A stretch of 64,000 nt of DNA. Source: Gnetum montanum (taxonomy: Eukaryota > Plantae > Gnetophyta). Positions 36,129-64,000 of this stretch are shown in pieces (the stretch's first letter is position 1; every line of letters starts with the position of its first letter). Location: the NCBI GenBank assembly GCA_015680685.1, contig MNCI01000323.1, positions 59,305 through 123,304 of the forward strand, in the 5' to 3' direction. Made by a program: the position numbers and the translations under genes. The notes beneath the pieces were generated by a model. That model made no database searches, was not told the DNA's origin, and was given only the letters and a program-made list of their open reading frames with translations.

Positions 36129-39100
36129 GTTGCCTCCTCATAATGGGCTGTTCCAAATGCTTTTGCCATTTGCCAAGGCGGATGATCTTGAATGTACCTG
36201 GCTTTCAAGAGCATTTCATAGCCCAAACAATATAACTCTCAATTCCAAGGCATCATTTGGTTTCTACAAGTAGCCTTAGATTCATTACCTTCCCATACCT
36301 TATGGAGATTAACTAAAACCCACTTCTTGACTTGTACATCAATACATGTTGGTAGATCCAGTGAATACTTCTTTGACACTAAAATAGCTAGTAGAGGAAT
36401 GTCATGAACTCTGAACAATTGATCATTTGTCTTAAACAAAACTGTATTNNNNNNNNNNNNNNNNNNNNNNNNNNNNNNNNNNNNNNNNNNNNNNNNNNNN
36501 NNNNNNNNNNNNNNNNNNNNNNNNNNNNNNNNNNNNNNNNNNNNNNNNNNNNNNNNNNNNNNNNNNNNNNNNNNNNNNNNNNNNNNNNNNNNNNNNNNNN
36601 NNNNNNNNNNNNNNNNNNNNNNNNNNNNNNNNNNNNNNNNNNNNNNNNNNNNNNNNNNNNNNNNNNNNNNNNNNNNNNNNNNNNNNNNNNNNNNNNNNNN
36701 NNNNNNNNNNNNNNNNNNNNNNNNNNNNNNNNNNNNNNNNNNNNNNNNNNNNNNNNNNNNNNNNNNNNNNNNNNNNNNNNNNNNNNNNNNNNNNNNNNNN
36801 NNNNNNNNNNNNNNNNNNNNNNNNNNNNNNNNNNNNNNNNNNNNNNNNNNNNNNNNNNNNNNNNNNNNNNNNNNNNNNNNNNNNNNNNNNNNNNNNNNNN
36901 NNNNNNNNNNNNNNNNNNNNNNNNNNNNNNNNNNNNNNNNNNNNNNNNNNNNNNNNNNNNNNNNNNNNNNNNNNNNNNNNNNNNNNNNNNNNNNNNNNNN
37001 NNNNNNNNNNNNNNNNNNNNNNNNNNNNNNNNNNNNNNNNNNNNNNNNNNNNNNNNNNNNNNNNNNNNNNNNNNNNNNNNNNNNNNNNNNNNNNNNNNNN
37101 NNNNNNNNNNNNNNNNNNNNNNNNNNNNNNNNNNNNNNNNNNNNNNNNNNNNNNNNNNNNNNNNNNNNNNNNNNNNNNNNNNNNNNNNNNNNNNNNNNNN
37201 NNNNNNNNNNNNNNNNNNNNNNNNNNNNNNNNNNNNNNNNNNNNNNNNNNNNNNNNNNNNNNNNNNNNNNNNNNNNNNNNNNNNNNNNNNNNNNNNNNNN
37301 NNNNNNNNNNNNNNNNNNNNNNNNNNNNNNNNNNNNNNNNNNNNNNNNNNCACCAACTGTTCACGGCAGGAACAACCACTCACACTAAGGATGGACACTT
37401 AGATCGTTACAACGATCGGGGCCGAAGTAGCCGAAGAGAAGGTAAGAAACATCACCACGGTGATGGATCCCCTTCCTCTTCTCCTTCAGCTCACCATTCA
37501 CACTCTCCTTCTACATCTGAGCGCAACCATCGTGAGCATAACGGAGAGGGTAAAAGTAAAAAGGAAGATGAAAGACCTCGACAGGAAGTTCGAGAGGAGT
37601 TAGGACAAGGGCAAGGACATAGGGAGAGTAGGGAACCACCACGAAGACATCATAGATGTCATGATAGAGATGATCATGACGAACCCCTACTCGCAACCTG
37701 AAGCATGCTCGATATCACAAAGGTAGTTAGGATCCCCACAAGGCACTTAAAAGATTGCAGGATCAAGTGTTTGGACATAAATAATATCCCACATTTTGAA
37801 GGGGGATACAACGCTAATCCTCAACATCATTTACAGGCATTCCACGATGCTTGTGCCTTGAAAAATATAGATAATGAGTGGTAGAAGCTTAAGTTGTTCC
37901 CAAGGACACTCACTAAAGAAGCAGAGAGCTGGTACCGGTCCTTAGAACCAGAAATCATCAGGAGGTGGAGTACGATGCTTGAACTGTTCAACAACAAATA
38001 TCAGACGTACTCCAGAGTGTCCAATTACCGTAAGCAAATCCAAGGCTGGAAACAAGGTGCTTATGAACCCTTGGATGTTGCCATGGCTTGTTACTATACA
38101 CTGCTACATTGTTTCCCACGCCATGGGTATGCTAAGCAGGATCAACTTCGCCACATCATGGATGGGCTAAGGAATGAAACGAGAAGAACTCTTGGGACTT
38201 ACGCCCAAGGGAGACTTTCCCAACTTAGAGCCCATAAAGTTGAAAGTTTGTTGGAATAAGTAGCACAAGAAGAGGGTGAGCTACGTAAGAGGGAAAGTAC
38301 GAAAGAATACAACCGTGATCCCTTCCTTTGCAAGAAGGGAGTGAAATTCTGTGATGAGGAGGATGAGTCACCACTCGAAGAGTTGGTGAANCAATACCCT
38401 TACCGGCAGCCCGATCCTTACAGTTATTATGTGCAGCAACCAGTTTCTCCAGGTGACTCTATGGGTCACACTACCCCCTAACATCACTACCAAGCTCGAG
38501 AGTACTTCTGGAGGACTCCTTCTCCTTCGGGAGATATCTCACATTCAGTCCATCCTCTAACTCCACCCGCACCTCTTCCACCTGTAGTTCCCATACAACC
38601 TATTCCAACAATGCAAGGGGAATTACCTACCCAACCGCAGCAACGTAATGTCGCGAGAGCTGTAAATATTCAGCATGTAAATATCCAACCAGGTACTAGT
38701 TCTGACAATAACTGTACAAAAAAGAGACCTTTTTTTAGAACTAGGAGCCCAGACAAACTCTCGCAACAACAAGTGGATGGGTACATGTATAGGCCTCTAA
38801 CCACTAACGCTTCGGAGAACCCTTTAGTCCAAAAGAGCGTAATGCATACGGTTATGTTAACACATACCGTAACTGACTAGATCAAGGTAGGCCACCTTCC
38901 CAGGAAACTAACTAACCCTAGGAGTCCCTTTATTTATTTGCAGATCGCTGGAAATGCACCACATCAGGATCTTCTTGACTCGGGTTCTGGAGTCAACTTA
39001 ATTTCACAAGAGATGTATCAGGCCTGGAACCTGCCCCAACTTAAGAAGAGGAACATCCAACTGGAGCTGGCAAACCAGTCCATCACCATTCCCTTAGGAT

Positions 39101-42100
39101 TGGTGGAGGATGTTATTACCACTGTGTGTGGTTGGTCCTACCCAGCTGACTTTCTGGTGATCAAAGTGAACAACAACGAATGGGACTTCCCAATTATAAT
39201 GGGAAGGGCATGGCTAAGCACAGTAGATGCATGCCTTAGGATCCACGATCTTTCCTTGGAAATCTCTAAGATAAACATATGTCGAAAGATCGAGAAGAGG
39301 ATAGTTCCATGCATCACATACAGTGATTCATCGAGTGATGACATTGAGGAAATGTCTCCATGTAATAGGTGTGCCCAAGAAACTCTGCAACAAAGATGCC
39401 TGTATGTAGCAACCACACAAGAAGTATTAGACACCCAGTGGTTGACAGCTTCTTCTAGGAGCAAACAAATATGCATGGAATGAACTGAGGAAAATCATGC
39501 CAACAACCGTGGCATAGACACATTGGAATGTGAGCGTCGCCAACTTCCACCCCTCAACTTAAGATCATCAATTGGGAGAAGTTGGGCACTTCTTAGAAAT
39601 TCNNNNNNNNNNNNNNNNNNNNNNNNNNNNNNNNNNNNNNNNNNNNNNNNNNNNNNNNNNNNNNNNNNNNNNNNNNNNNNNNNNNNNNNNNNNNNNNNNN
39701 NNNNNNNNNNNNNNNNNNNNNNNNNNNNNNNNNNNNNNNNNNNNNNNNNNNNNNNNNNNNNNNNNNNNNNNNNNNNNNNNNNNNNNNNNNNNNNNNNNNN
39801 NNNNNNNNNNNNNNNNNNNNNNNNNNNNNNNNNNNNNNNNNNNNNNNNNNNNNNNNNNNNNNNNNNNNNNNNNNNNNNNNNNNNNNNNNNNNNNNNNNNN
39901 NNNNNNNNNNNNNNNNNNNNNNNNNNNNNCTAAGGTATGTTTCTTTTGATATGGCAGGCAATGAGATCACTTCATCCATCCATCCACCAACTTCTATGGT
40001 TTCCCTTGGCTTGGAAATGTATAGTTCCCTTCCAATAAGAACTTTAATAAATCAGTGACTGGGTATTCTCAAACTAAGAAAGGACTCAAGGATTGCAAAG
40101 GGTGTGACTTCAAGGGAACTTAATGCTTTTGTGTTGGTCATTCTCTCGGATGCTTGGATGTTTTCTTCTTAAGTTTTCTTACTATTCCGATGTTACCCAA
40201 TTATTGGAAGCTGAGACAATAAAAATAAGAAGTCTTTGCATGGTGTGGTCCCCATGCATAAAAACACAAAATACAAAAAAAAAACCAAAGTAAGGATTCA
40301 AAGCACACCCCTTAGACGGAATAACTTTGGGCTGCAAGCACTGGTTATGGAACCAAAGTGTTCCCTCTAACTAAGGCCCTTCTCGCTTCCAGTTCTCTCC
40401 TTTGTTTCGTCGGAATGGTGGTGGCTCTTCAAAGATGCATCCTCATTATCTAAGTGGATGGTTAGCCAAATGCATTGATGCGAAGTCACTGGAAGTGGTT
40501 GGTTTGAGCCCGAAGTTGGAATGAGACTTGCCAAGTCACATTAACCATAAAACACACAAGGGGCTATACACCACCTTGTTCTTGGGATTCCACTCCACTT
40601 CTCTTCTTTCCATCATTCTCTCCATTGTTCACCTCATTGCTGGTTGTATCATTAGTGTATATTTTGGTAGATATATTATTTTCTTTTTGGTAAATTCTTC
40701 CGGTTAAGACTTTAACTCTTGTTCCAAAGGACATTCCCAGAGCCTACAGACTCTTTGAATGTGGGGTTGTCAGGGCATTAAGGGCATGAGCCTACTTTGG
40801 GGATTACCCACTGACATTCCTACTTGGGACATTAGTTAACTTCTTTTCCTTAACATTTTACAATTAATTTTATTTTTGTTCATTCCCATCTTGATATCTC
40901 TTTCATTGATGCCATAGTTGTCCCTTTTTACCTATCTTTCTTACTCCTTTTCTTTCTCCATTCTAACGCTACTGAAGGTTTTTGATTAGTCATGGGGGTA
41001 CGGGGCCTACTTTTTCGATTTTTCTCCTAAGCCCCGAATTTTTTCATTTCTCTTCCTAACCCCTACACCTTTGGTAGTCATCATCTACATATTCCTAGGT
41101 CCATATCAGCCATACCACAACCTAGCCAATGAACCTACACCGAAGCAAGGTATTGTTTACTTAATGATTCAATTACCCTTGCTAATATATGATTGTGTTG
41201 TGTGTGCAGATGACAATCATACAACAACGGAATGGATCTGGAGCAAACACTTGGAATGGAGCAGCGCTAAAGCAGCTATGCAAGGAGTAGAATTGATGAT
41301 GCGCTTACGAATGGACAACGGAAGGCACAATCTAGGCATTGGCAACAGCAAGACTCTTCTCTCTTCTTCTCTTCTATTCTTTTTCCTCTTTTCTCTCAGC
41401 TGCCAAATGTGGCCTGATGTCATTGTAATAAGGTGTTCACCCTTGTTGTCATGAACACTAGTTTTGTCAAGTCTTGTAATAATGAACAGTTCACATGTCA
41501 TTCCATTAGTTCCATTCCCCTCAATAATCCCATACCTACCTGATATTATTGTAAGNNNNNNNNNNNNNNNNNNNNNNNNNNNNNNNNNNNNNNNNNNNNN
41601 NNNNNNNNNNNNNNNNNNNNNNNNNNNNNNNNNNNNNNNNNNNNNNNNNNNNNNNNNNNNNNNNNNNNNNNNNNNNNNNNNNNNNNNNNNNNNNTTAATT
41701 AATGTTATTTATTGCTTTCCTAGTAACGCGGCATGAGTACAACTTGGTTACGAGCGTTGATGAACGTGTACGGCTAGCCAAGAAATCGGCTACTCATCGT
41801 GATTATATATACTCACCCTTACCTCCTAGAACATGGGACAAGTACGACTTGATTACGAGCATCTACGGATGCGTACGGCTAGTCAAGGAATCGGGTGCTT
41901 GTCACACTTAGGTTAGTTAAGTGCCTCAGTATGACCGCTTCGAGCACGTGTGTTACGTGTGGTAATCCCAGTAACGATTAGCATTTGGTAGCCACAGTTG
42001 CACAGTTCAGGGTGTGTACGACAAGTGGGAACGGATGCTGATGCTAGGACTTAGTGTTGTAGTTAGAATTAGTTTTAGTCTCTCAACTCTTCACTGTTAG

Positions 42101-42794
42101 CATAGGAGATAAATCAGAAAATACCAAAAAAATCATATACCTCGGACTTACTTAACCATACACCATGACAACAACAAGTAAGTCTTGGAAGACAACGATT
42201 AATTAACCCCAAGTGTTCCTTACAGCGTTTAGGCATTTAGTCTGTGGAGTTCGACCAGATCGCGCGTGCTACGCTCGTTTCGTATGGTTGAGTGTAGGGG
42301 TACCTCGCCACTCATCACACGATGTCAACATTTGCACAAGCAACAGACAAGGCTTTTACAAAGTGAAAAGAGCATTCACGACTCTACCATGAGGTTTGTT
42401 TATGACTGTGAGGTTGGTAATTGCTATAAAAATGACCCATGCTACCACCCTCAATTCTAGTGTTGGCAAAATGAGGAGAACAAGCAATAGACAAATATAT
42501 AATTTTAGTTTAATCAACTATCTATTACAGCTAAATTCATGCCATGATTTGAATACAATTATGATACTACAGAGTGTAACAAGGAAGCACAACTTTGCAA
42601 GGTCCACATGAACAAAATAAGTAGGTACAACTAAGGGAGGTTCTATTCTATTCTATTCTATTGTCCAATCTAGTAGTTAATTAAGATATCCCAAAAGTTG
42701 ATGTGACATCGATCAATCAAGAGGGAAAATACTTGAATCATGGTCATATACACATGCTGGCGATGTCCACAAACAAAATAACATCTAGGACATT

Positions 42795-44819: not shown

Positions 44820-47800
44820 ATCGCAATATAAAAAAATACAATCTTTATTGCTCACACAACTTTTTACAAGAAGCAAGGAATACTTTAGAGGTGCAATACG
44901 TAGCACTCTAGATCTCTCTTGCTTTTTAGCGTACAAGGAATGCTTTGAAAGGCACACAATGCAGCACTTTCAGATCTCTCTTATACCACTCTAGAGTAAT
45001 GAATGCTTCACAGATGCACAAGGCGCAACAATCTGGATGTCTCTTACTCTTTTACTCACACTCTTTTACTCACACTAGACAACTCTCTAACTCTTTGTTA
45101 TATGCTCTCAAAACTTTTTGGACCTCTACTTCTACTTACAAGACTTTATATAGGCGTGCAGCCACCACCTTACAATCAGATAAACATTACATAGTGGAAG
45201 ACAACATGATTGCAAATATTACATTCTAGCAAACATTATTATATGGAATATTTGATACATGATTCTTTTTATGGGGCAGTGTCAAGTGTGCTTGGTGGAG
45301 AATCACTTTCTCTTGGTGTGGTCATTTATTTTGCCTTGAATTCCTCTAAATGTGATGTGTCCATAGTACTGTCAGCAATTATGCCTGCGAGATAAAGAGT
45401 TTTCTCATATCCACCATGACGTCGAAAGGTTTCAATGTGTGGTTCCAAGTTGTAAAGCTCAAGGGTACATGGCACGCATTGCTGATTTTGACAGGTCATA
45501 ATGATATCATAAGTGATAATGGTGTACACATCCTAGAAAAAGGCATAACTAAAAGTATTGTCTCAATCAATGCATCTAGATATACAAGTTGTCAAAAAAT
45601 ATAATGATGGATTAATGGTTTAACCAAAATGCCAATTTTTGGATTCAAGATGAGCATAATAGAGCAAGTCACCATGATAAGAGGGAAGTCGATGATAAAG
45701 GTTCCTAGGATATCCATTTGGTATATGTAAAGAGGAGAGACCAAAACGTGCCCACCAATCCCAAAATAAAACATTTTTATTTGAAGGATAATTAATAGGA
45801 CTCATTTCTATTTTATAAAGGTGGACAGGATCAAGCTAATACAATGGCCAACACAAAATTTCAAGAGGATTACCATGTTGGATGTCAATATAAGTCATGA
45901 GTTTGCAGTGGATGGGGATGACAGACAAATCCTCTCTTTCATCTTGGATTGTAAACACCTTTTGGACTATAGTGGTATATGGGGATATATTTTGGTTTAT
46001 TAATAGGAAGGAATCCCACCATGGTTCACATTCATGTTTGTAGAATGCTTGCTCTGCAAAAGACATATAAGTTTCATGACAATGTAGATGCCTAAGCTAT
46101 CAACAGTAGCGCAATGTCCATCCTTCTTGCTGTAATAGATCTACAAGACTTATATACAAGTTTAATACAAACATATTATGAGAAAAATAATAATTAAAAT
46201 TGAAATTCTCTAGTAAGGAAATCTGCTAGAGAATTATTCTTTCCATCTAAATATTGAGTTTCAAAAGAAAATTTAGGTAGAAACAAATACCATTGAATTA
46301 ATTTTGTATGAGCAACTTTGTTAAGATTTTTCTTTATGTGTATTGTGATAATTGAGTTGGGGTGTATTGTGATAATTGAGTTGGGGTGCATTGAATTTAC
46401 TAGAAGCATATCAACAAATATGAATAATACCATCTATTTCTTCTTTTAAGGTAGCTCCCCAAAATTCATAGGATGCATTTTCCTCAAGAATGAATCTACC
46501 ATTAGTTGGGAGTCTAAGCTTTGGAAGATGTAGACATTTTTCTTTAATTTGTTTAATATTAGTTTTATGTTGTTCAGTCGAAGCTCCAACATTAGAACTT
46601 AATTGTTGATTTAACAATTTTCTGTCTTTAGCAAGATGTTGATAAAATCCTGAAACATAATTGATGCAACTAAGAAACTGTTGAAGTTGAGTTTTATCAG
46701 TAATAATGTCAGGAAAATTCTTGATTGCAATTAGCATGTCGGTTTGCAGATGGATATGTCCATGTGAAATTTCTAAACCAAGAAAATTCACAGTTGGTTG
46801 AGCTATAGTCATTTTCTTTTTAGAAGGTGATAGGACTAATCCATTTTCATCCACTAATTCATAGAATTTTTCTAAATGTTGAAGATGGTCTGCTGCATTT
46901 TTGCTCATGATTAAAATATCGTCAATATGTATAATAATAAAAGGATATTCAATAAATATTTTATCTATACATTGTTAAAATATAGAGGGGGTAGTTTTCA
47001 ACCCAAAGGATAAAATTTTCCATTCGTAAAGTCCACTGAGGACTGTAAAAACAGTTTTCCATTAGTCAGGTTTGTGAAGTTGGATTTGCCAAAATCCAAA
47101 TTTTAAATCAAATTTTGAGTAAATGTTCATATGTTGTAATCGTTGAAGTAAATCATCTTTACTCGAAATGGGATTTTAAATAGATTTAACAATATCATTC
47201 AGGGGTTTATAATTAACCACTAGCCTTTTTTTACCGCAAACTATTTCTGCTCTTTTATTAATGTAAAAAGAAACACATGCAAGGAACTAGTGATAAGTTG
47301 AATGAGTTGTTTTTGTAGTAATGTCTAAATTTCCTGATCACATTCTTTACGTACTTCAAGTGACATTCCAATATGATGTGCCTTACTTTGGATTTTGACA
47401 TTATCTTTTAAATCTATCATACACCAATGTTGTTTTTTATGATGGAAAACAATCAGATCTGATGCTAATCTAAGCAATTTCCTTTTTATAGTATCAAAAG
47501 CATCATGATGGTGTGATATTTGATTTATGACCCAATCTATTTTTTGAGTTTTTTGTTTAAGTAGTGTTTCAAATCTAATTTTATAAGTAGATTGTCTAGG
47601 AAAAAAATATTTCTTAAAATAATATTTTAAGAAGTAATAGCATATGGTTATAAAGTTTGTAAATTATCAGTACCAACTAATAAATCATAGGATGGAATAT
47701 TAAACTGATAAACTTGCAAAAACATGATGGTTCTTTTAGGAGTATAGATGGGAATGGAGGTTTGCATTTCTATTGTTCTATGTTGTGTATTAAACACAAC

Positions 47801-50057
47801 CATTTGCTTTTCGCCATTTTTCCAACAAAAGTCAAGAAGAACTTTAGGTCCAGCTAAAGATATTTTTACTCCACTATCAATCAAAGCATTAATAGGATAA
47901 GATTTTAAACTAGGTAGTTTAATATGAAAAGTACAAAAAAGTAATGATGTTTTTACCTAATTTTTGTTAACTAATTGAATTGGTGAAGCTTGTTTACCTT
48001 GTTCTTCATAAATTTTTCGTTGTTCACTTTTCTCTTCTTGTTTTAATTCCTATAATTATCTGTTGGCCCATTCAATGAACGTTTGCAATTGTTGTATCCT
48101 ATGAGTTCGCCATAAGGATCTTTGTGTTGGATCATTAGCATTTAATGGTTGTTTGTTTTATTTTTTCACATTCTTCTTCTAATTTTAATAAATCTTTGAG
48201 TTGTTCTTCATCAGGTGGTTGAGAATCTTCATGAAATAAAGCTTGTTCTTTTAAATATCTTTTATGTAGTTTGATTTCCTCTTTCTTTTCATTAATTTTA
48301 TGTTCAAAGAAAATACATTTGTGAATATGATCAACAAGTGGAGTTTTCTTTACAGCTTTCTACAAATTCTCAAGTTGGTTGTTTAATTCTTACAGAATTA
48401 AATTATCATCAGGATTATGATATTGAGGAATGTGACCTTTTATATATGGCCTAGTAGAAGGTCTAAAACAAGATGGGTTATTTTTATAAAAATTGATATT
48501 ATAGTAAAAAACATCAAAATCATCTGAATCCAAATTAAGATCGGGATAATCATCATATTTATGATCAAAAGGAAGCCATTCCATACCTTCAAATAAATAG
48601 TCATATGATGTATGTATTATGATATCCCCTTATTGTAAACCAATATCTTCATTTGTAACCCAATCATAATATTGTTCATTTAATGGATGTTTTTCAATAA
48701 AATTAATCTTATTTTGATGATAAGATTTCTGAGGGCATTGATTTGAAAAATGTGGACCTTGGCAAAGATAACATTTAATATTTTTTCAAGGAAGTTTTCT
48801 TTGTCTACGTTTAAACATTCCTCTAAACCTTTTTCCTTCTGGTCGTATTGTTTGAGGTTTTCTATGCCATTATTGCTATCTTCTTAGTCTTTTTCATTTT
48901 TTATTTTTTTTTTGGGATGTTGTTCTTTTTTGGCAACATGCTTTTTCTTTGTAAAACATTTCTTTTGGATAGATCTCTAAACAGATAGATTTTCCTATTT
49001 TTTTTTTACTAAGATCTACTATTTGGCGTTGTGCTTGTTGGTCATAGCAAAGTTCTTTATTAATGTTGGTAATAAATTTCCTAATTTCACCAAAACTCAT
49101 TTCTACTAAGACTAAATTTTAATGTTTTACTTCAGCCAAATATTTGTTACAAAATGGTTGGAGTCAACAACCTGGTAGATGCTCTTTTGCGCCAATCTCA
49201 TGCGTCAATTTTCCATTATAATATAATTCTTCCATCGTGTCTAAAAATCTATATAAATCTTGGATTTTAGGTTATCTAGCTTTAAAAAATCTATCCCTAT
49301 ATAAATTTTCTTGATTTTTTCTATTTCCTACAAATTCTTTTGTAATAGCATTTAAAATAAAAACACTCGGTGCATTAATCAACTTTCTTTTGATTGGATT
49401 AGGAATATGGTTCCACCATTGTTTAAAGATACCTCTAAAAAGATAAGTAGCATTCTAGATAGCTTGTCTAGAGGTTTTTCTTTTTAATAAAATCTGAATA
49501 AACAAATAACTATAAATTGAGTCAATGAATTCTTGTCTTTCTTATAGATTTTTATTATCCATTGTAAAAATTGGGCTTTTATCTTGAGCTTTTCGTACTT
49601 GAATTGCAGCAAAATCTATAAGATCTTCTATTTGTGTATTAGAAGTTTTGGATAGTAAGATCTTTTCTTCAAAATCTGAGGTAGTACCTCCTTCTAATTC
49701 AGTACTACTAGTAGAGGGTGTTTTGATGTGAATACCACTAGTATTAGCACTGACTTTTGATTTTCTTCTTTTTTTTTCTCTCCTAATTCGTTTTGTTTTC
49801 TCCTGTATCTTGTAGTATGTGATTTTCCTATGTGAGGTGGAGATCCCAGAATAGGTAATTCTTTTAGTGAAGATAGAACACTCGTTTGTACTTTTGGTAC
49901 CCAGACGCTATGTATTTGTATGAAATTATTATATATAATGTCTAACTTTTTATCTTGTTTTGCTACCATTTCTTCTATATTATCAATATTTGTATTTGCC
50001 CAGTTTTGGAGTTGTACTATATTAAAAGGTTGGAGTTTTGCAGTTGTACTATATCAG
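44820..50057 (-). mobile_element. Endogenous caulimovirid A, left arm plus central single-copy spacer
   Basis: Decayed CP with CYLCQGPHFSNQC knuckle, protease ALIDSG (~47875), RT IHIDDILIMS (~46920), RH ending NSLADFLTREFQF (46194), extra ORF 45269-46140, TATA 45145-45152, AATAAA 44844-44849; no integrase or LTRs. Confidence 0.9.
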
Positions 50058-53000
50058 AAGCTAGAGATAAAACCCCAATTTTTACAATGGACGATAAAAA
50101 TCTACAAAAAAGACAAGAAGTCATTGACTCAATTCATTATTATTTGTCCATTCAGATCTTATTAGAAAGAAAAACCTCTAGACAAGTTACTCGGATGCTA
50201 CTTATCTTTTTAGAGGTATCTTGAAACAATGGTGGAACCATATTCCTAATCTAATCAAAAGAAAGCTGATTAATGCACTGAGTATCCTTATTTTAAATGC
50301 TATTACAAAAGAATTTTTAAGAAATAAAGAAAATAAAGAAAATTTATATAGGGATAGATTTTTTAAAGATAGATTAACTAAAATCCAAAATTTATATAGA
50401 TTTCTAGATACGATGGAAAAATTATATTATAATGGGAAATTGACGTATGAGATCGGGGCAAAAGAGCATCTACTGGGTTGTTTACCCTAACCATTTTGCA
50501 ACAAATATTTAGTTGAACTAAAACGTTAAAATTTAGTCTTAGTAGAAATGAGTTTTGGTAAAATTAGGCGATTTATTACCAACATTAATAAAGAACTTTA
50601 CTATGACCAGCAAGCACAATGCCAAATAGTAGATCTTAGTAAAAAATTAGGAAAATCTATTTGTTTGGAGATCTGTCGAGAAGAAAGGTTTTACAAAGAA
50701 AAAGCATGTTGTCAAAAAAGGACAACATCCTAGAAATAATGCAAAATACCAAAAAGATAGCAACAATAGCGTAAAATACCTCAAAGAATACGATCAGAAG
50801 GAAGAAATGTTAGAGAAATGTTTAAATGTCGATAAAGAAAACTTCCTCAAAAAGATATTAAATGTTATCTTTGCCAAGGTTCACATTTTTCAAATCAATG
50901 CCCTTAGAAATCTTATCATCAAAATAAGATTAATTTTATTGAAAAAGATCAATTGAATGAACAATATTATGATTGGGTAACAATTGAAGATATTGGTTTT
51001 CAATAAGGGGATATTATAATACATACATCAAATGACTATTCATCTGAAGATATGAAATGGCTTCCTTTTGATCATGACTATAATGACTATCCTGATTCTA
51101 ATTTCAATTCAAATGATTCTGATGTTTTCTATTGTAATATGAATTTTTATAAAAATTGCCCATCTTCTTCATCCTCTTTTAGACCTCTTGCTAGGCCATA
51201 TAGAAAAGGTTGAATTTCTCAATGTCATAATCCTAATGATGATTTAATTCTACAAGAATTAAACAATCAACTTGAGAATCTGTAGAAAGCTTTAAATAAA
51301 ACTCCTCTTGATCATATTCACAAATGTATATCCCTTTAACATAAAATTAAAGAAAATAAAGAGGAAATCAAATTGCATAAAAGAAATTTTAAAAAACAAG
51401 CTTTATTTTATGAAGATTCTCAACCATCTGATTCTTATAACGATGAAGAACAACTCGAAGACTTATTAAAATTAGAAGAAGAATGTGAAGAAATAAAACA
51501 AACAAAGCCATTAAATGCTAATGATCCAACACAAAGATTATTATGAAAAACTCATAAGATACAACAATTGCAAATGTTCATTGAATGGGCCACAAGAGAA
51601 TTATAGGAATTAAAACAAGAAGAGGAAAGTGAACAATGAAAGATCTATGAAGAACAAGGTAAACAAGCTTCACCAATCCAATTAGTTAACAAAAATCAGG
51701 TAAAAACATCATTACCTATTTGTACTTTTTATATTAAACTACCTGGTTTAAAATCTTATCCTGTTGATGCTTTGATTGATAGTGGAGCAGAAATATCTTT
51801 AGCTCGACCTAATGTTTTTCCTGACTTTTGTTGAAAAAATGGTGAAAAGCAAATGGTTGTGTTTAATACACAACATAGAACACTAGAAATGCAAGCCTCC
51901 ATTCCCATCTATACTCCTAAAAGAACAATCATGTTTTTGCAAGTTTATCAGTTTAATATCCCATCCTATGATTTATTAGTTAGTACTGATAATTTAAAAA
52001 ATTTAGAACCATATGTTATTACTTTTCAAAATATTATTTTACCAAATATTTCTTTTCTTAGACAATCTACTTATAAAATTAGATTTGAAACACTACCTAA
52101 ACAAAAAAATCAAAAAATAGATTGGGCCATAAATCAAATCTTACACCATCATGATGCTTTTGATACTACGAAAAGAAAACTGTTTACATTAGCATTAGAT
52201 GATCCTATTGTTTTTGGTCATAAAAAACAACATTAGTGTAGGATAGACTTAAAAGATAATGTCAAAATCCAAAGTAAGGCACATTATATTGGAATGTTAC
52301 CCGAACTACGTAAAGAATGTGATCAAGAAATTCAAACATTACTACAAAAACAACTCATTCAACCTAGCATTAGTTCCTTTGTATGTGCTACTTTTTACGT
52401 TAATCAAAGAGAAGAAATAGTTCGCAGTAAAAAAAAGGCTAGTGGTTAATTATAAACCCCTAAATGATATTGTTAAATCTGTTCAACATCCTATTCCAAG
52501 TAAAGATGATTTACTTCAAAGATTACAACATACACACATTTACTCAAATTTTGATTTAAAATCCAAATTTTGATTTAAAATCTGGATTTTGGCAATTCCA
52601 ACTTCACAAACCTAACCGATGAAAAATTGTTTTTACAGTCCCTAATGGACTTTACGAATGGACAATTTTACCCTTTGGGTTGAAAACTACCCCTTCTATA
52701 TTTCAACAATGTATGGATAAAATATTTTTTGAATATCCTTTTATTATTATATATATTGACGATATTTTAATCATGAGAAAAAATGTAGCAGATTATCTTT
52801 AACATTTAGAAAAATTCTATCAATTAGTGGATGAGAATGGATTAGTCTTATCACCTTCTTAAAAGAAAATGACTATAGCTCAACCAACTATAAATTTTCT
52901 TGGTTTAGAAATTTCACATGGACAAATCCATCTACAAATCCACATGCTAACTGCAATCAAGAATTTTCTCGACATTATTACTAATAAAACTCAACTTCAA

Positions 53001-53534
53001 TGATTTCTTCATTGTATCAATTATGTTTCAAGATTTTATCAACATCTTTCTAATACTAGAGCTTGGACTGAATAACATACAGTCGTTGTCAAACAAATTA
53101 AAGAAAAATGTCAACATCTCCCAAAGCTCAGACTCGCAACTAATGGTAGACTTATTCTTGAGACAGATGCATCCTATGAATTTTGGGGAGCTGCCTTAAA
53201 AGAAAAAATAGATGGTATTATTCATATTTGTCGATATGCTTTTGGTAAATTCAATGCACCCCAAATCAATTATCACAATACACATAAAGAACTTCTAGCT
53301 ATCATCAAAGGTGTTGAAAATTTCAGAATATTTTTAGCTGATAAATATTTTATCATCAAAAACAACTTAAAACACTTTGATAAGTATTTAGCCATGAAAA
53401 ATATTAACAAACTCACTCATACGAGATTGATCTGATGGTCTCTATTTCTAACTAATTTTTCTTTTGAAACTCAATATTTAGATAGAAAGAATAATTCTCT
53501 AGCGGATTTCCTTACTAGAAAATTTCAATTTTAA
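50058..53534 (+). pseudogene. Caulimovirid CP-AP-RT-RH polyprotein, decayed
   Basis: Domain order capsid/zinc knuckle, aspartic protease, RT (KFDLKSGFWQ, GLYEWTILPFGLKTTPSIFQ, YIDD), RNase H; multiple stops and frameshifts. Confidence 0.88.
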
Positions 53535-53587
53535 TTATTATTATTCTCATAATATGTTTATATTAAACTTTTATATAAGTCTTGTAG

Positions 53588-54470
53588 ATCTATTATAGCA
53601 AGAAGGATGGACGTTGCGCTATTCACGGTGACTCAGGCATCTACATTATCATGAAACTTATATGTCTTTTGTAGAGCAAGCATTCTACAAACATGAATGT
53701 GAACCATGGTGGGATTCCTTCCTGTTAATAAACCAAACTATATCCCCATATACCATTATAGTCCAAAAGGTGTTTACAAGCTGAGACGAAAGAGAAGATT
53801 TGTCTATCATCCCTATCCATTGCAAACTCATGACTTATATTGACATCCAACTTTGTGATTTTGATAATTTGTATGACAATCCTCCTGAAATTTTACCTTG
53901 GCCATTGTATCAACCTGATCCTGTCCATCTTTATAAGATAGAAATGAGTCCTATCAATAATCCTTCAAATAATACTTTTTTATTTTGGGATTGGTGGGCA
54001 CGTTTTGGTCATTCCCTTACACATATACCAAATGGATATCCTAGGCACCTGTACCATCGACTTACCTCTTATCATGGTGACTTGCTCTATTATGCTCATC
54101 CTGAATCCAAAAATTGGCATTTTGGTCAAACCCATAATCCACCGATATATTTTCTGACAACTTCTATATCTAGACACATTGATTGGGACAATACTTTTAG
54201 TTATGCCTTTTTCTAGGATGTGTACACCACTAACACCTATGATATCATTATGACCTATCAAAATCAGCAATGCGTGCCATGCTTTACAACCTAGAACCAC
54301 GCATTGAAACCTTTCAACGTCATGGTGGATATGAGAAAACTCTTTATCTTGCATGCATAATTGCATACAGCACTATGGACACATCACATTCATAGGAATA
54401 TAAGGCAAAAGAAATAACCACACCAAGAGAAAGTGATTCTCCACCAAGCATGCCTGACACTACCCCATAA
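53588..54470 (+). pseudogene. Caulimovirid post-RH ORF of unknown function (~290 aa reconstructed)
   Basis: WPLYQPDPVHLYKIE, FWDWWARFG, YHGDLLYY and DVYTTNTYDI are conserved in the left arm (45269-46140) and, at amino-acid level, in virus B. Confidence 0.7.
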
Positions 54471-54586
54471 AAAGAATCTTGTATCAAATATTCCATATAA
54501 TAATGTCTGCCAGAATGTAATATTCACAATCATGTTGTCTTCCACTATGTAATGCTTATTTGATTATAAGGTGGTGGCTGCATGCC

Positions 54587-54879
54587 TATATAAAGTTCTA
54601 TAAGTAGAAGAAGAGGTCTAAGAAGTGTTGAGAGCATATAACAGAGAGTTAGAGAGTTTTCTAGTATGAGTAAAAGAGTAAGAGATATCCAGATTGCTAC
54701 CCCTTACGCATCTGAAGCATTCCTTACTTTGGAGTGGTACAAGAAAGATCTGAAAGTGTTGCGCCATGCGCCTTTCAAAGCATTCCTTGTACGTTGAAAA
54801 GCAAGAGAGATCTAGAGTGCTACGTATCATGCCTCTAAAGTATTTCTTGCTTCTTGTTAAAATCTATGTGAGCAATAAA
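54587..54879 (+). promoter_or_regulatory. Viral pregenomic RNA promoter TATA (54587-54594) and poly(A) signal AATAAA (54874-54879)
   Basis: cctatataaag followed ~285 nt later by aataaa; both are mirrored in the left arm; this is the caulimovirid terminal-redundancy layout. Confidence 0.7.
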
Positions 54880-55299
54880 GATTGTGTATTTTTATATTGC
54901 GATACTCTTTGATCAATTTCACATGTCCACTCCCTCATGAGAGCTTGTTTGTCCAAGTCAAGTGGCAATGATTCCATGAATAGAAAAATGATTATTGAAG
55001 AATGGGTTATCTACTCCTTGTCCATTGTGTAAACTTTTGTGCACAAGTCTTTACATAAGCCCTAGGGTCTCATCTATCCTATAAATAGAGGGGGTGTGTA
55101 TGACCCCTAATAACCACCCTCTAAAAATTAGTACATTTTTTTCCTTTTCCAATCCTCTAAAAACATGGAATTATATTTATATTAGCAACTAATAATGATG
55201 TGACTCATAATGATGGGAGGATTATAGGGCCTATGTATCTCCTTTCCTCATTAGACTTAATAAATTGAAAGGTTAATCTCAGTTCCTAAGCTATATTAA

Positions 55300-55985: not shown

Positions 55986-56746
55986 TTTTTTTTGTGAAAA
56001 AGTCAAGTAATTTCATTAGAGAAGAAGGTAATATACAAAGCCTTGGGGTAAAAACCCTAGCAGCCCACAAAAATAAAATGATCACCCCCAAGGGGGATGG
56101 AACACCACACAAGGAACACATGTTCCAAAAGCAAAAACTGGGTGTCAAAGGTGGCCTAGCTTAGAAAATCCATAGTAAGGAAGAGTAGAAAATTGTCCAA
56201 TTTCTAAGCTATTTGAAGTATTATAGTCAAAACCAAACCCCAAGAATCCCATTGCATGTATCGGATAACCCCTCTTGGTCCTTGTAAGCTATGCCTTCAG
56301 AGGGGTCTTGGAAGTTTAGTATAGGAGCATCATGACCATTACTAGGCATGCACTGCATCCAAGACCACCCTGTAATGTTCTGATACAACAAAAGCCATGA
56401 CCTCTTGAAATTCCTTATACTACTCCTCCTACTGCTTCTGGGCGGCTTCTTCTAGGGTGGTGGCCTTATCTAGGTGGAGCTTAGTAGAAGTAGTCCTTAT
56501 GAATCTCCTTAGTCTAGCCCACAAGGCATTGTGGTTTATTCCCATGACCACATATGGACATCTTGCCATACGAAACTAGCACCTAGCATTTGACTCATGT
56601 GCAATGTCCTAGTTCATCTTCATTTGCTGCTCCGCCAAAAGGACCCTAGTCCATTGTTTGTTCTCCTCTTCCTCTCTTCTAAGCCACTCCTGCTCCTCCC
56701 ACCCCTCCTTCCATAAGTCAATATGGATATGGATGTCAATCTCAAA
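55986..56746 (-). mobile_element. Probable LINE 3' end with poly(A) tail
   Basis: Minus strand ends ...ttgtatattaccttcttctctaatgaaattacttgactttttcacAAAAAAAA, typical of a plant L1 3' UTR; same orientation as the LINE 5' part at 60255-62815. Confidence 0.5.
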
Positions 56747-59700
56747 AATATGTACGTAATTGTATCCGAGTTTTTTCTATTGCTCTACTTCCTCCAAGGA
56801 AAAAAATGAAAGTGAGACTGGGCGAAGATTGATGCCATTGATCTTCAAATCACATTCAGAGAAGTGCATACATTGCAGGGATTGTAGGGGATTCAAACTC
56901 ATAAGAGGGTAGATCTCACGTTGTTTCGAAAAGCGAAGGAAGCTTCAAACATGAAGAAGCAATACAGAAATGTGAAAATTTATCTATAGGAGGTAGATGC
57001 ACCAAAAAGATTGTGTTGATCACATCCATCAATTGCCATGATATGGGGTTGGGAGAATGCCAGCAAGATTGGATTTCGAATAGCATTGCAACTTATCCCC
57101 TCACTCCTTGGGCCTTACTGTGCACCTTACACCTATAGCAAATCACTCAATCTAAGAAGTCTTCGAGAACAATATCAAATCAAATAGGCAAATAAACACA
57201 GAAGATACTTGTAACAAGAGTATAACTTGACTTTGATACCAACTCTTGCCAAAATCACTCTCTTCGCATTGCAAACTCAACGCTCAAAGATTAAAAATAG
57301 AAAAAGCACAAAAACAATACTTCAAGATAAGAAAAAGCTTCAAAGTTCATATTATTCGCATTGGAACTAGGCCAAATATACAAGCAGAGAAGCAACTAAG
57401 GGATCCTTGGGAGAAGAATGCTTCAAAGGTGCTATGAGCTGCTCTTTGGATCTCTTTCTTCCAATGTCTCTTAACTTTGCTTTGGTACATATTCATAGTT
57501 GAGGCTAGAGCCTCTATAATCTTCTTGGTGCAATCCAACTATACAAGCACTAGTGGATGACAACTCATACTACACTTACAAAAGATAAGGGTGTACAACA
57601 CCCTAACATGATACATTAGTCCACTTTTACTATGGCACTGCTTTATAGTACAATAATTTACATAGTGGCAGACATAATCATGATTCTTTATGCATCTCCA
57701 AGAGAATCATAGCTACCATGTGATCCTACCTCATCATCGACTAAAGGGGAATCCCAAATTCTAGAGTTAGAAGGAGTTTCAGGTTTTCCACAAAGATATG
57801 TGACATTTTCATTACCTCCATTGTGGTACATATAAGCAACACAATAATCAATCATTTTCAAGTCAAGAGATCTGGGATTGAGATTGTGACAAGTACAATG
57901 TTGCTGGATATCATATGTATTAGAAGTGTAGATATCCTAGTAGAAAGAGCACCTCTAAGGGGTAGTCCAATCTAATTATCTTTTAAAATAGGAAACAAGA
58001 AAATAAGAAGGTGGCTCATTGAATAGCTCAATATTCTAGGCTTGGGCTTGTAAGTTCCTATAGTAAAGGTAATCACCATGATAATCATTACGACGGTTAA
58101 GGAGATGAGTTGTGTAAGATTCATGGAGATAATTAGGTAACTATCCAAACCTTTGCCACCATAGCCAAAATAGCTCATTAGGTAGGATCCAGGGATTGAT
58201 TTCTATTTTATATACATGAAAGGGACTTGGTTGATAATGAGGCCAATTAAGAACGTGTTTAGGAGTAGCTTCAAAACAAAGATCTTGTAGTTCTATATTA
58301 GTTTGGCATCAAACTTCTCTGAAGGTGGAGTCACCAAGTCTTGGAAGGAATGTTTGAATGGAAATATTTGATAATGATGCATTTGTCTGAAGGTACCTGA
58401 TGAACCATTAAAAACTTTATTTCCACCCTTCTTGGAAAGATTCTTCGATGAGCATAGTTAGATATTAACCTAGTATGTGCTACCTTATTGAGGGCCTTCG
58501 TACTTAAATACTTATCAAAATGATTTAAATCACTTCTAACTTTAAAATGCATGTTCTATAAGAACAGCCTAAATTTATCTATGTCTTTTATAATGGCCAG
58601 AAGCTCTTTGTGTGTGTTGTGATAGCTTTATAGAACATCATTAAATTTTTCTTAAGCATACTTGCATATCCAGATAACATTGTCCTTTTCTTCTTTGAAA
58701 GCAACTCCCTAGAATTCATGGGAAGCATCGATTTCAAGAATCAACTGTCCATTAGTAGGTAGTTGTAACCTAGGTAGATTAGAGAATTGTTGCTTAATCA
58801 GAGCAATAATTTTTGTATGCTTTGAAGTCCATTCTGGAGTATTTTCACCTAACCTTTCATTAAGGAGCATTTTGTAGATGTTTATAAAAGCTAGATACAT
58901 AGTTTACACAACCAAGAAATCCCTAAAGTTGTGTTTTGTCCTTCAGTTCATTTGGAAATGTCTTTATAGCTTCTAGGACATGTGGCTACAAATATATCGT
59001 GTCATTTCTTATTTTTAATCCTATGAATTCTATAGAATTGGCTATGGTCATCTTGGTAGGAGATAAGACTAAACCATTATTGTCTATTAATTGTTTAAAT
59101 ATCTCCAGATGTTCAAGATGTTGTTAAGGATTCTTACTCATAACTAAAATATCATCTATCTATACAAGAATAAAGATCTTACCAAATATTTGGTCCATAC
59201 ACTTGAAAAATAGAGGGGGCCGTTTTGATTCCAAAAGGTAAGACCATCCATTCATATAATCCTCCTGGCACAGTGAAAATTTTTTTCCACCTATCATTTG
59301 GTTCGACTTGTATTTGTCAAAATCCTAAGTTTAAGTCAAACTTAAAATAAACATTAGTATGAAGGAGGAGTTGAAATAGATCATCCATGCGAGGTATAGG
59401 ATGTTGGACTAGTTTGATTAAATCATTTAAAGGGTTGTAATTAACTACAAATCTTTTCTTCCCTCTAACTTGTTTTGTGCATTTGTTTACATATAATACA
59501 GCACAAGAAAACATACTAGTGCTAGGTTGGATTAGTTTTTCATCTAGTAATGCTTGTATTTCTTGATTGCATTCTTTCTTTAGACTTGAAGGCATACCAA
59601 TATGATGTGCCTTTGTTTTGATTTTTATATTATCTTTGAATTCTATCCTACACCATTGTTCTTTCTTGTGTTTGAACACTCTAGGATCATCATTAGCTGA

Positions 59701-60254
59701 TTCTAGTAACGTATTTGTTGTTAGGCTAAATTTGGTTTATAGATTGTGCACATTATTTAAAACCCATTACCTATTAGATTGTTTGTTGGAAGATTGTAGT
59801 GATGGGAACCTACTAATATATCTATGTTGCAGGGAGAAGTTTTCTCCAAAAAAACTTACATATGTGAAACCTATTGTATAAGGTTCTAGTCTTTGTAAGT
59901 TGTCTGTCCCAATAAGCATGTCGTAATATTTTATCTCACAATGGACTATTGTAAGATATAACAGTCTTCCCTTATTTTTTTTTATGGGTATAGTTGCTTT
60001 ATGCTTATGATACATCTTCTCTATGTTAAACCTAATATCATTTTCTTCTATAGGTTCCCATAAGTGAAATGGGATTACATTCCATTTAGAAATGGATATA
60101 TTAGCACCTAAATCTATTAGTATGTCTACAAAATATCATTTATAATTTTATAACTTAATAAAAAATATACAAATAGGTTTATGTAGTCTTTACCTGAGAA
60201 TTAGCATTTATTTTTAATATAGACATGACTTGATTTTCTGCCTGATATTCCTAA
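56747..60254 (-). mobile_element. Endogenous caulimovirid B (distinct species): AP-RT-RH, extra ORF, intergenic region, PBS, start of movement protein
   Basis: ILIDLGANISIS (~60095-60125), RT 59000-59680 (RGKKRFVVNYNPLND, FKFDLNLGF), RH LILEIDASHEF (~58710), extra ORF ~57690-58440, tRNA-Met PBS TGGTATCAAAG 57231-57241, MP motif SLEEVEQxKKLGYNYVHI ending ~56747. Confidence 0.88.
57231..57241 (-). promoter_or_regulatory. tRNA-iMet primer binding site of virus B
   Basis: TGGTATCAAAG (canonical TGGTATCAGAGC) between the viral intergenic region and the MP-like ORF. Confidence 0.75.
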
Positions 60255-62815
60255 GTTCCAACTCTTGCCCCATAAACGGCCTCAGCAACGTCTGGTTCTC
60301 AACATGCCCTAACACTTTCTAAATTAGAATAGAAATCTTCCTCATATCCCTCTACTGCCAAATGATCACCCAATAGGTCTGTACCACCTCTACAACTAAC
60401 TTCGCACCCCCCACCGTCTCCCCCTCAAGCATAAGCTATACCTTTTTCTTAACTTGGTCATGCCCTTTTGCCAAAGCAAAGAAAAAACACATGTTACAGT
60501 CCCCCTCTCTTAACCAGTTGATTCAAGCCCATTGACGCGAATAAATCTTCTCTTCTAATGCCAATTCTTGTAACTCCCCAAGCACTTCACATTCCTCATT
60601 AGCTAGATCAACCCCATTTTCTTACCTCATTTGTATCTCCCTTAGTCTAGCTTGTAGCTACATGTGGTATGCCCTTAAATCGTATTTGTCCTTAGACACT
60701 CTAGACCATATTTTTTTCTTTAGCGCAATCCTTATTTCAAGAATTCTCTAGGTTTCTAATCACGTGATTATCCCTACCACATGTCTTGGACCAGCGACCT
60801 CAAGCACGCCTTCCCCAACCACGTACGCTTGAAATGGAAAGGCCTGGGAACTAATCCCTTATGATTTCATATCTGATAAAGAATCAACCTATGGTCCAAT
60901 AATTGTCTTTCCCTTCCCACCACCTAAATGGTGAGCTCCAGTACCATCCTCATACTAACCCACACATGGTCAATCCATGACTGGACCCAATCTTTTCCCT
61001 TCCTCCTATTACTCCATGTAAATTGACAGCCCATAATTTCCATGTCCACTAAATCATGATCTCTCATAAATGCAATGCATTCCATTCCCGCTAGGGGATC
61101 CATGGTTTCCCCTTCTATTTTCTCCCATGGGTACAATCATTGATTAAAATCACTGATCACAATCCATCTTTGCTTATTGGAAACCACCTGTGCAACCTAT
61201 CACAATTCTTGCACTTGAATCTCCTAATTTTGAGCACCATAAACATTTGGCAATCAAACATTCTCTTAAATCACATGAACCTTCTGACTCCATTGGGTTC
61301 ATTGATCAGCGTGATCTAAAATTGAGAGAGAATAGCCAACCCTTCAGCTCGACCCTTGCACGAAACCATCTACAACTGCCAGCCCACCCACCTCAACAAA
61401 CTGGATTTGGACACTTGCAACTTCGTTTCCTGCAAGCAAACCACATCACATCCTTCACTTCAAATAATCATTTTTAGGTATTCCATTTGTAGGAAGTACC
61501 TTGTCCCTTGCAATTCGAAGATAGAACCTTCATGGGTGACCTAGTGAGCATCTATGGTAGACCTCTTTCACAATCCTCTATAATCCCAAATTGATGTCAA
61601 ATTGTGTTAGCTTCTTCCGGGTCATCAACTTCCTCGAACACCTAGCCTTCCCCCCTACAAGGGAAATTGAGGCCATGCCCATCAAATCTTTAGTCTATTC
61701 TTGTTGGGGTTCTATGATGTCTTGCATTCGGGGCCTTAGAAGAACCCCTAGCAACCATAATCCAACTTCCCCATGGTGGACACTCACCACTTGGAGAAAC
61801 TAGATCTACTTTAGTCCCAACTTTCATTGTACAAGGTGTCTACTTGGCCGACTCTTCCATTAACGACTCTTCCACCAATGCTCCCTCCTTTTGCACCTCT
61901 GAAGTCTTATGCACAGCATGCCCATTGGTAATCCTAAACCAACTAGCTTGTTCTTGCTACGCTGGTGGTTGTTTCCATTTTAACTTTGTCTTGGCTTGGG
62001 CCTTGCAATCAGTAGCCAAATGCCCTTTCTCCCTACAGACAAAAATCTCCTTATCGACTAGCATGGGACTAGGGTTTCCAATGTTCTCGTACTCTATGCA
62101 GATCATCTCCATGCTAGAGGAAAGATCCAAAATAGCTTCGTTCACCAAATCCTTTGACAACAATAGTCGCCAAACATAGAAACACACAATCCATTTGCTC
62201 CATGGAGCAAGTGAAATGGTCAAGCATGATAAAATTTCCAAGAAATCTAGCAAGGGTTTCCAAGAAGTCTGTGGTCCATCATTCCCATGGAATGCTTAAG
62301 GCCCAAATCCACATAGGCACCCTACTAAACAAATCCTTCTCTCTGTGGGCACCTAACCTCCATTGTGTCAAGGCAAGCCCACACACCCCATAGAGCTACA
62401 AACCTCCAACTAAAACAGCTCTTCCAATAGACAACAAACCCCAATATCGACTAGTCCCCATGTAGTCTATGCCCACTGCTTTATCAAGTCCAAACAAGGC
62501 TACACTCTGCTAGAGACAAACCTCCCAATGAGACTCAACTCCATCGTTTTCACTTTGTCCACTAGGGTCCCACACACGTTCAGCCTCATACTCCCCTCCT
62601 ACCTGCTACAGGCATCGACTCCTCCTACTCCTAATTTCTAGCCCCCTAAAGATGCTAACACTTGGTCATCCCCACCTCCAAAATGAGCTTCCCGCATTTC
62701 CCATCCCCACTAGCCCAATTCTGCTTGCAACACCACCACTCTTTACACCCCCGCCCGCTGCAATCTCTACCCCAACACCAGCACCCACTCCTACTCCCAT
62801 GCCCTCTCTAGCCAT
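60255..62815 (-). mobile_element. L1-type LINE, 5' part: ORF1 and ORF2 endonuclease; RT absent
   Basis: ORF1 with VPMWIWALSIPWE and knuckle-like FVCREKGHLATDC; APE motifs WIVISDFNQ and GCQFTWSNRR...QSWIDHVWVS; INWLREGDCNMCFF; breaks after ENQTLLRPFMGQELE. Confidence 0.85.
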
Positions 62816-62829
62816 TTCAAAATCATCAT

Positions 62830-64000
62830 TCTAGAAGTTTGCTAATGTTTTGGAATGTCTTTCATTTGTTCGTCCTAATCACTGATGTTAGGCTCTATTT
62901 CTACTTGTCAATTCACTATTACTTGCAAAGCCTCATACTAACTAATATTGTCTTCTACTAGTAATTCAATGGTGTTATTAAACATCACCTTTGATGGCTT
63001 TACATCTCAAATTTCTTCTTTTTCAATTTTGATAATTCAAAGTTTAATGACACTTCCTAAGTTGTATCAACTACACCAACATGTAATTGTAAATTTATTC
63101 TTTCTAACGAGTAAACCTCTAATGTACTCAGCCAACAAAATTACAATTCCTAGTAATTACAATACTTGCAATGCCTCAAGTCTCTTCATACATCAACATT
63201 GTTGTTTTACATCAATTTGATGATTTTTTGTGTCTTTGGGTATCGCTCTCTCAACTTTCACAATTGCATTGGATGATACTTGTCATGTCTCAAGTTGTAT
63301 TAACTACAACAACATGCACTTGTTAACTTGTTCATTTTAATAATTGAATATATGATGCATTCCACCCACCTTGATTCTCATTTCTCATACCACATTACAC
63401 ACCAATAACAATTTGTTGTTCCACTAAGCTATTTTAGTGGCAAGTTGAAATGGATTGTGAATAACTCAATAATAGCAAGTAATCTTAGTTGCAATTTCTC
63501 ATAATAACTATTGAGATTTACTATAATGTTCCATTGTATGGATTTTATTCTCCTCAAATTACTAATGTTTCATTTTCTATAATTAAATGATAAATGTTAT
63601 TTCTTTAGTTGTATCAAAAACACCAACATGTACTTGGATATTGTTTGCTCTCATGAACTAAAATTCAAATGCACTTCATCTCCCTAATCGCAACTCATAA
63701 TCATTCTGCTTATAATGCCCCATGTTCCTTCATAAGTCAATATTGTTGTTTTGAATCAATTTAATAAATTTCTATCCTTGGCTATTGATCTTTCCATTTA
63801 TATGGTTGAGAGGAAAACCTGACTTCATCGATTTGATTGCATTCTTAATCCTTATTGTTAAACAACAATCATACTTGTCAATTTCCTTGCTAGCGATTCT
63901 AGTTTTAAATGTTCATGCAAAATATTGCGATTTACTTGTAGTGCTTTAAAATTATTTTTTGATATCACATTACATGAATTTTCTTCTACTTAAATTTCTA
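62830..64000. repeat. Degenerate ~250-300-bp tandem-like repeat block
   Basis: Three recognisable copies of the unit also found at ~55480. Confidence 0.6.

Follow-up and report, generated by a model that had tools for sequence, protein, structure and literature searches.

We tentatively read an unannotated gene that lies behind the RNase H region of endogenous caulimovirids in Gnetum montanum, here termed ORF2, as the decayed second gene of a two-gene pararetrovirus lineage outside Florendovirus, whose probably soluble, non-enzymatic product may have served as an accessory protein damping the antiviral defence of the host. Purifying selection acted on ORF2 during the lifetime of the viruses; the three copies that we analysed are dead. 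They are found in a window, by which we mean the whole stretch of DNA that was analysed, of 64,000 nt (assembly GCA_015680685.1, contig MNCI01000323.1, positions 59,305-123,304 of the forward strand). The window contains virus A twice, as an inverted pair, and virus B once. The right arm of virus A occupies 50058-54903 on the plus strand and the left arm 49591-44820 on the minus strand; aligned over 4694 bases, the two show 89.6% identity, with 346 transitions versus 143 transversions. The unpaired centre between them (49592-50057) is also viral and forms a continuation of the left arm. Virus B is on the minus strand, from approximately 60190 to 56720. The viruses show the features of Caulimoviridae, namely a movement protein (MP), a coat protein (CP) that contains a zinc knuckle, protease (AP), reverse transcriptase (RT), RNase H (RH) and a tRNA-Met primer site, lack an integrase, and their RT nests inside this family in phylogenetic trees.

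RT and RNase H were identified by the Pfam families RVT_1 and RT_RNaseH, and ORF2 follows directly after RNase H. The partial, decayed ORF1 of the virus A right arm (50128-53534, plus strand) comprises the coat protein with its zinc knuckle, protease, RT and RNase H. Its decayed counterpart in the left arm spans 46194-49673 (minus strand), and that of virus B (58445-60189, minus strand) retains protease, RT and most of RNase H. In the right arm ORF2 extends over 53554-54470 (plus strand). The initial annotation had let it begin at 53588; its first codon is instead the ATG at 53554, from which 19 nt separate the stop of ORF1, and the frame contains four stops within its first 245 codons, a frame change near 54285-54288 and one more stop past it. 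The left-arm copy (45269-46174, minus strand) is a single frame of 301 codons with seven stops. ORF2 of virus B (57688-58404, minus strand, the start coordinate being where reading began) is a single frame with six stops that has lost its 5' end; the terminal part of RNase H is missing from this virus as well. In four RNA runs with a matching species label, of which 2-26% was read, depth was zero on all three ORF2 copies, which carries little information as the copies are dead. Near the start of ORF2 there are splice-acceptor-like sites and, at 53572, a TATA-like box, signals that are common in AT-rich DNA. Downstream of ORF2, virus A has a region that we regard as intergenic from its position (54471-54903, plus strand), with a TATA-like box at 54587, an AATAAA at 54874 and the arm end at 54903. 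In virus B, a tRNA-Met primer-binding site with one mismatch (57229-57241, minus strand) lies 447 nt past the ORF2 stop. Beyond it the start of the movement protein was recovered (56723-56944, minus strand; tblastn, 46% identity over 74 aa, E 2e-12) with the polyprotein P0004 described below, as expected for a circular genome that was opened elsewhere.

The conserved blocks of ORF2 lie at 53899-54335 (plus) and 45850-45404 (minus) in the two copies of virus A and at 58245-57808 (minus) in virus B, in identical order in all three. All 13 peptides quoted in the initial annotation are present in the six-frame translation. Its description of a W/Y/H-rich protein after RNase H in both viruses also holds, with RT and RNase H upstream by Pfam and with W, Y and H making up 15-18% of the ORF2 residues compared to 8.4% in P0004. 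BLASTP aligns ORF2 of A and B with 58 of 150 residues identical (39%, E 4e-30). All three copies being broken, one might ascribe this likeness to leftover similarity of non-coding DNA or to a chance match between aromatic-rich sequences. However, of the 36 frame pairs between A and B the ORF pair alone scores 294, the rest scoring 94 or less; the local score of 290 compares with 37.9 +/- 6.5 in 1000 shuffles (maximum 70); and silent differences occur in 24/52 and 27/56 of the codons that specify the same residue. Together with the existence of an intact relative, P0102, these tests refute such an explanation, to which we assign practically no likelihood.

Third codon positions are the least conserved ones in ORF2 between A and B. 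The dN/dS ratio is 0.38 for the left arm versus B (160 codons) and 0.32 for the right arm versus B (136 codons), computed on the copies as they stand, with dS near saturation (1.6-1.7) and decay after integration included. Since both near-saturation and post-integration decay bear on the ratio, the latter by raising it, its direction is safe and its value rough. The corresponding pN/pS ratios are 0.64 and 0.56, with bootstrap upper limits of 0.78 and 0.69, and the RT controls give a dN/dS of 0.15-0.17. Thus, the purifying selection that had been proposed from the sequence alone is borne out by an A-B ratio of approximately 0.3-0.4, well away from the value near 1 that would have spoken against it. 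Between the two arms of virus A, RT diverged neutrally (0.87) and ORF2 gives 0.43 (pN/pS 0.46, bootstrap 0.26-0.81), a value that is not fully explained. The three ORF2 copies share an amber stop at one position of the alignment (54214-54216, 45535-45533 and 57939-57937). Programmed read-through at this site is not favoured, as a shared stop would arise by chance in about 10% of cases (nine columns at risk) and the column is open in P0102. The ORF2 products have predicted masses of about 33-35 kDa (32.8-34.8), acidic isoelectric points of 5.3-5.6 and are soluble by hydropathy.

A HMMER pass over 1,835,955,588 representative proteins returned P0102 as its single match (E 1.6e-23). This intact protein of 278 aa is found on three contigs, the largest of 6965 nt. 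It is 24-29% identical to the ORF2 copies of the window, with 28 invariant columns, and keeps the motifs W-P-x-Y, H-x-Y-x-I, F-W-x-W-W-x-x-x-G and H-x-D-x-x-Y. Its tail is acidic (21 of the last 35 residues are D, E, S or T), and it lacks hydrophobic segments (hydropathy over 19 residues peaks at 0.71), basic clusters and GW/WG repeats. GW/WG repeats and a basic RNA-binding patch are features of some silencing suppressors. The ORF2 family has no Pfam family and no match at E 10 among the PDB sequences. The best Atlas families (0.90 and 0.84), unnamed clusters of low recognition, were rejected. A word-seeded search with the left-arm ORF2 recovered none of 111 candidates, and scans with ORF2 alignments found nothing in 114 and 142 stretches of viral contigs or in 314 of metagenomes. 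Neither these searches nor the comparisons with P4 and TAV described below yielded a full-length match to a characterised protein, in line with the initial annotation. An AlphaFold model of P0102 from a four-row alignment is not confident (pLDDT 34.8), and Foldseek with this low-confidence model returned no row under E 0.1. We found no description of the ORF2 family in the literature, in which such sequences are rarely printed. Nine of the 22 runs listed (four studies) contain related DNA. In four DNA runs, with four organism labels and one of them maybe the window's own source, ORF2 of both viruses is matched by several contigs that differ from each other, which therefore represent multi-copy endogenous families. 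An intact natural relative makes structure and function of the protein approachable without recourse to the broken copies.

The RT-RNase H region of virus A matches P0004, an intact polyprotein of 1768 aa (205 kDa) with the order MP-CP-AP-RT-RH, at 60%. MP, RT and RNase H of P0004 were identified by Pfam, and the protein ends as ORF1 of virus A does. It is 60-67% identical to virus A across RT/RNase H; its RT core is 67% identical to that of the virus A left arm and 62% to part of that of virus B. The best other RT core among 216 proteins reaches 58% (P0006 from Cryptomeria), and reference-like genomes reach 53% (98 rows). Scans of viral contigs with P0004 (0/30) and P0007 (0/8) were negative. 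We infer a genome plan of MP-CP-AP-RT-RH followed by ORF2 from P0004 together with the viral fragments of the window, P0004 and P0102 presumably belonging to the same kind of virus. The zinc knuckle of the coat protein (window 50863-50901, and also in P0004) has the spacing C-x2-C-x3-H-x4-C, one residue short of the usual one; among 218 fetched proteins the short spacing occurs in 5 and the usual one in 115.

Trees were built from 60 rows (quick) and 27 rows (careful), chosen by hand from the fetched matches. The window viruses and P0004 form a clade (support 97/95), whose neighbours are a Taxus element (89/82), Cryptomeria elements (91/85) and then the petuviruses (84/78), the deeper supports being modest. 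The genus-level RT cut-off is 62% in PMC13308828 and 55% in an older scheme (PMC10377300), both with RT limits that differ from ours. The RT tree thus places the lineage outside the genera compared, and the poorly described genus suspected in the initial annotation is likely: the lineage is likely a genus-level branch beside the conifer elements, unless it corresponds to one of the 35 unnamed OTUs (1-35) of PMC13308828. Petuvirus and Pinus nigra virus 1 have a single ORF with a C-terminal extension, whereas ORF1 of both arms and P0004 stop after RNase H, and the ORF2 family does not match these post-RNase H extensions.

The closest parallel to this plan is that of the florendoviruses, whose ORF2 (PMC4241990; DUF8797/PF31063 in PMC13658181) is likewise a second ORF in another frame after an MP-CP-AP-RT-RH polyprotein. 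In both groups the tail is acidic, and a His-led strand and an F-x-x-W-W-x-x-F/Y-G block are present. One could regard the window viruses as aberrant florendoviruses and the gene simply as florendovirus ORF2 (DUF8797). The two-ORF plan is the same, judging from the order in P0004 and from ORF2 coming next in the window, and the W-rich block is shared; moreover, one florendovirus ORF2 of 35 kDa, close to the masses found here, is reported in PMC13658181. However, an AU test rejects placing the window viruses inside a clade with six florendoviruses (p 8.4e-10; the first tree was known before the test), this clade having been labelled by MP-core matches of 31/33 and 29/33 residues to Suppl. Data 4 of PMC4241990. 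The RT core of P0004 is at most 58% identical to florendoviruses, and differences are also seen in the zinc knuckle, the coat domains and the core of the movement protein. Florendovirus identity of the viruses is thus largely refuted, and this explanation is very improbable. The proteins also differ, florendovirus ORF2 having 45-58 kDa according to PMC4241990 and the window family about 33-35 kDa.

To compare the proteins themselves, we used 20 florendovirus ORF2 rows, taken from 43 clustered open segments at 66 loci, for which a Pfam search found no common family. The two profiles have one block of 34 columns in common (probability 6-7, E 0.006), which comprises an aromatic strand with His at its head, then Pro, then F-x-x-W-W-x-x-F/Y-G. 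This match was reached by 0/60 column shuffles and 2/60 block shuffles. The motif WxxWWxxxG, which the initial annotation had named for florendoviruses, was nearly right: 15/20 rows carry a block of the type F/V/W-x-x-W-W-x-x-(F/Y)-G, with the same spacing as FWDWWARFG in the right arm of virus A (53983-54009, plus strand). A pattern for this block, which is partly circular as it was drawn from these sequences, occurs in 4/4 ORF2 family members and 15/20 florendovirus rows. Among 323,707 other residues there are just two further instances, both located in the tails that follow RNase H in florendovirus-sister viruses, and reference-like caulimovirid ORFs (223,413 residues) have none. Beyond the 34 columns there is no significant likeness. 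The global profile alignment is no better than shuffles, of which 58/60 and 59/60 reach its score and 47/60 do so after the motif. When the profile of florendovirus ORF2 was run on 76 sequences, none of the four family members obtained an E value below 0.047.

A model of florendovirus ORF2 (L021:2283-3518) has a pLDDT of 70.9, with about 90 in the core. It finds no Foldseek match in the PDB (best VIA Z 3.8), although a missing match is not equivalent to a new fold. The predicted order of elements is common to this protein and P0102, namely strand, W-helix, two helices, two strands and helix. With the caveat that the P0102 model is unreliable, strands begin, counted in residues from the W helix, at 55 and 73 in P0102 and at 51 and 69 in the florendovirus protein; in both, a helix comes next at 85. 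In the florendovirus-sister viruses P0150, P0161 and P0173, a domain like florendovirus ORF2 is fused to the polyprotein behind RNase H, and the florendovirus profile, run on 76 sequences, detects it with E values between 2e-5 and 2e-4. The W block of the ORF2 family is also present in P0150 and P0173, and WWSLYG is common to P0150 and P0102; the tails of these viruses match the ORF2 family over 18 columns (probability 4.9). The odds of a remote kinship between the ORF2 family and florendovirus ORF2 are about even, common ancestry being unproven because the likeness stops at the 34-column block. The common W block hints that the ORF2 gene is older than Florendovirus. Florendovirus ORF2 has been called genus-specific, without homologue, since 2014 (PMC4241990), and another lineage, distant from it, whose compact ORF2 contains that gene's most conserved block provides a handle on which residues matter.

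An orphan ORF after RNase H is a known pattern, seen in florendoviruses, wendoviruses and Wollendovirus 1. Wendovirus ORF4 and Wollendovirus 1 ORF2 resemble the present gene in being orphan ORFs after RT/RNase H of endogenous caulimovirids, and are set apart by their descriptions in PMC13308828 and PMC9794742: Wollendovirus 1 ORF2 has 568 aa and belongs to clade C, and wendoviruses have four ORFs. In CaMV the last ORF after RNase H encodes P6/TAV, and ORF2 might be a very diverged form of this translational transactivator and viroplasm protein. Apart from the identical genome position, Foldseek with the florendovirus ORF2 model places three TAV/P6 proteins in the best 16 of at least 500 weak rows (ranks 9, 14 and 16). 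These rows are insignificant (E 0.5-0.9, TM 0.12-0.13), a lead only, and relevant only if florendovirus ORF2 is kin to the window gene. By sequence, however, the ORF2 profile does not match 19 TAV/P6 proteins (probability 0.28, E 0.22), and florendovirus ORF2 fails as well (E 0.18). The Cauli_VI domain, present in 4/8 of the TAV-type ORFs scanned, is absent from the ORF2 family, and TAV proteins have 273-556 aa compared to about 300 aa for ORF2. Moreover, TAV goes with split genomes, and genera with an MP-CP-RT polyprotein lack it, as stated in PMC5902531; a transactivator role is unlikely because a single-polyprotein genome has no use for TAV-type reinitiation. We, therefore, set aside the transactivator named in the initial annotation and consider a diverged TAV quite improbable. 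More broadly, one might speculate that the post-RNase H orphan genes of clade B (the window ORF2, florendovirus ORF2 and the fused tails), perhaps with TAV/P6, have their common origin in a single ancient accessory domain, whose new fold is arranged around a W-W-x-x-F/Y-G helix and which served as an ancestral counter-defence module, the present lineage being an unnamed genus with a compact 280-aa form; in its entirety this is unlikely.

The precedent for a counter-defence role is P4 of RTBV (Tungrovirus ORF IV), likewise an accessory gene located downstream of the polyprotein ORF of a virus that has no TAV. RTBV is the one tested virus of this plan; its P4 lacks transactivator activity and interferes with 21-nt siRNA (PMC5902531), and so with siRNA-based defence. 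RTBV and the window viruses belong to different major clades. The ORF2 family shows no similarity in HHalign (probability 0.21, E 0.29) to a 389-aa ORF of L169, which we take to be RTBV P4 from the sizes of the genome and its ORFs. We suggest that ORF2, located downstream of a 5-kb polyprotein ORF and otherwise hard to translate, would be expressed from a separate subgenomic or spliced mRNA, as is presumed for florendovirus ORF II (PMC5902531). Its product would have a folded core rich in W, Y and H, followed by an unstructured, acidic tail, and would act via protein or RNA contacts. By analogy only with P4, its role might be counter-defence, a guess based on the conserved aromatic core, the lack of a catalytic or membrane signature, selection that is more relaxed than on RT, and the RTBV precedent. 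The silencing suppressor named in the initial annotation is likewise an analogy. The dissimilarity to P4 and the absence from P0102 of GW/WG repeats and of a basic RNA-binding patch argue against it.

An aromatic-rich core with an acidic tail would suit a scaffold as well as an effector, and ORF2 could instead encode a structural or transport helper, such as a virion-associated protein, an inclusion-body matrix protein or a vector-transmission factor. Structural and transmission helpers usually lie upstream of the polyprotein, which speaks against this, as does the lack of a family match when 414 ORFs of 99 reference-like caulimovirid loci were compared (best E 1.3). Caulimovirids do carry such accessory genes, for example an aphid transmission factor (PMC4241990). 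A helper function is conceivable but doubtful. Our best guess would thus place a counter-defence accessory protein ahead of a structural or transmission helper, followed by a diverged TAV.

The two arms of virus A terminate at an identical base, which lies 449 and 433 nt past their respective ORF2 stops. As this distance is close to that of the primer site of virus B, the arms end where the minus-strand primer-binding gap is expected. The arms have four ORF1 stops in common, of 20 and 22, approximately the expectation for independent decay. Hairpin DNAs occur in CaMV. The inverted pair fits a scenario in which a reverse-transcription product in fold-back (hairpin) form was opened and integrated, because the ends lie at the gap, a viral loop is found at the centre, the RT divergence is neutral and few ORF1 stops are shared. 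Linearisation near the primer site is reported in PMC13658181.

Other elements surround the viruses. A decayed L1-type LINE with DUF4283 and endonuclease (60200-63000, minus strand) abuts virus B upstream of its protease. An LTR element is present three times (8532-15363, 20314-26787 and 37351-42317), twice in direct and once in inverted orientation, the copies being 73-86% alike; gag- and protease-like text is recognisable in it by eye, with no Pfam match and no RT in the copy scanned. Directly past the right arm of virus A lies a high-copy host repeat (54913-55270), which reaches a DNA contig depth in the thousands and appears weakly in RNA reads.
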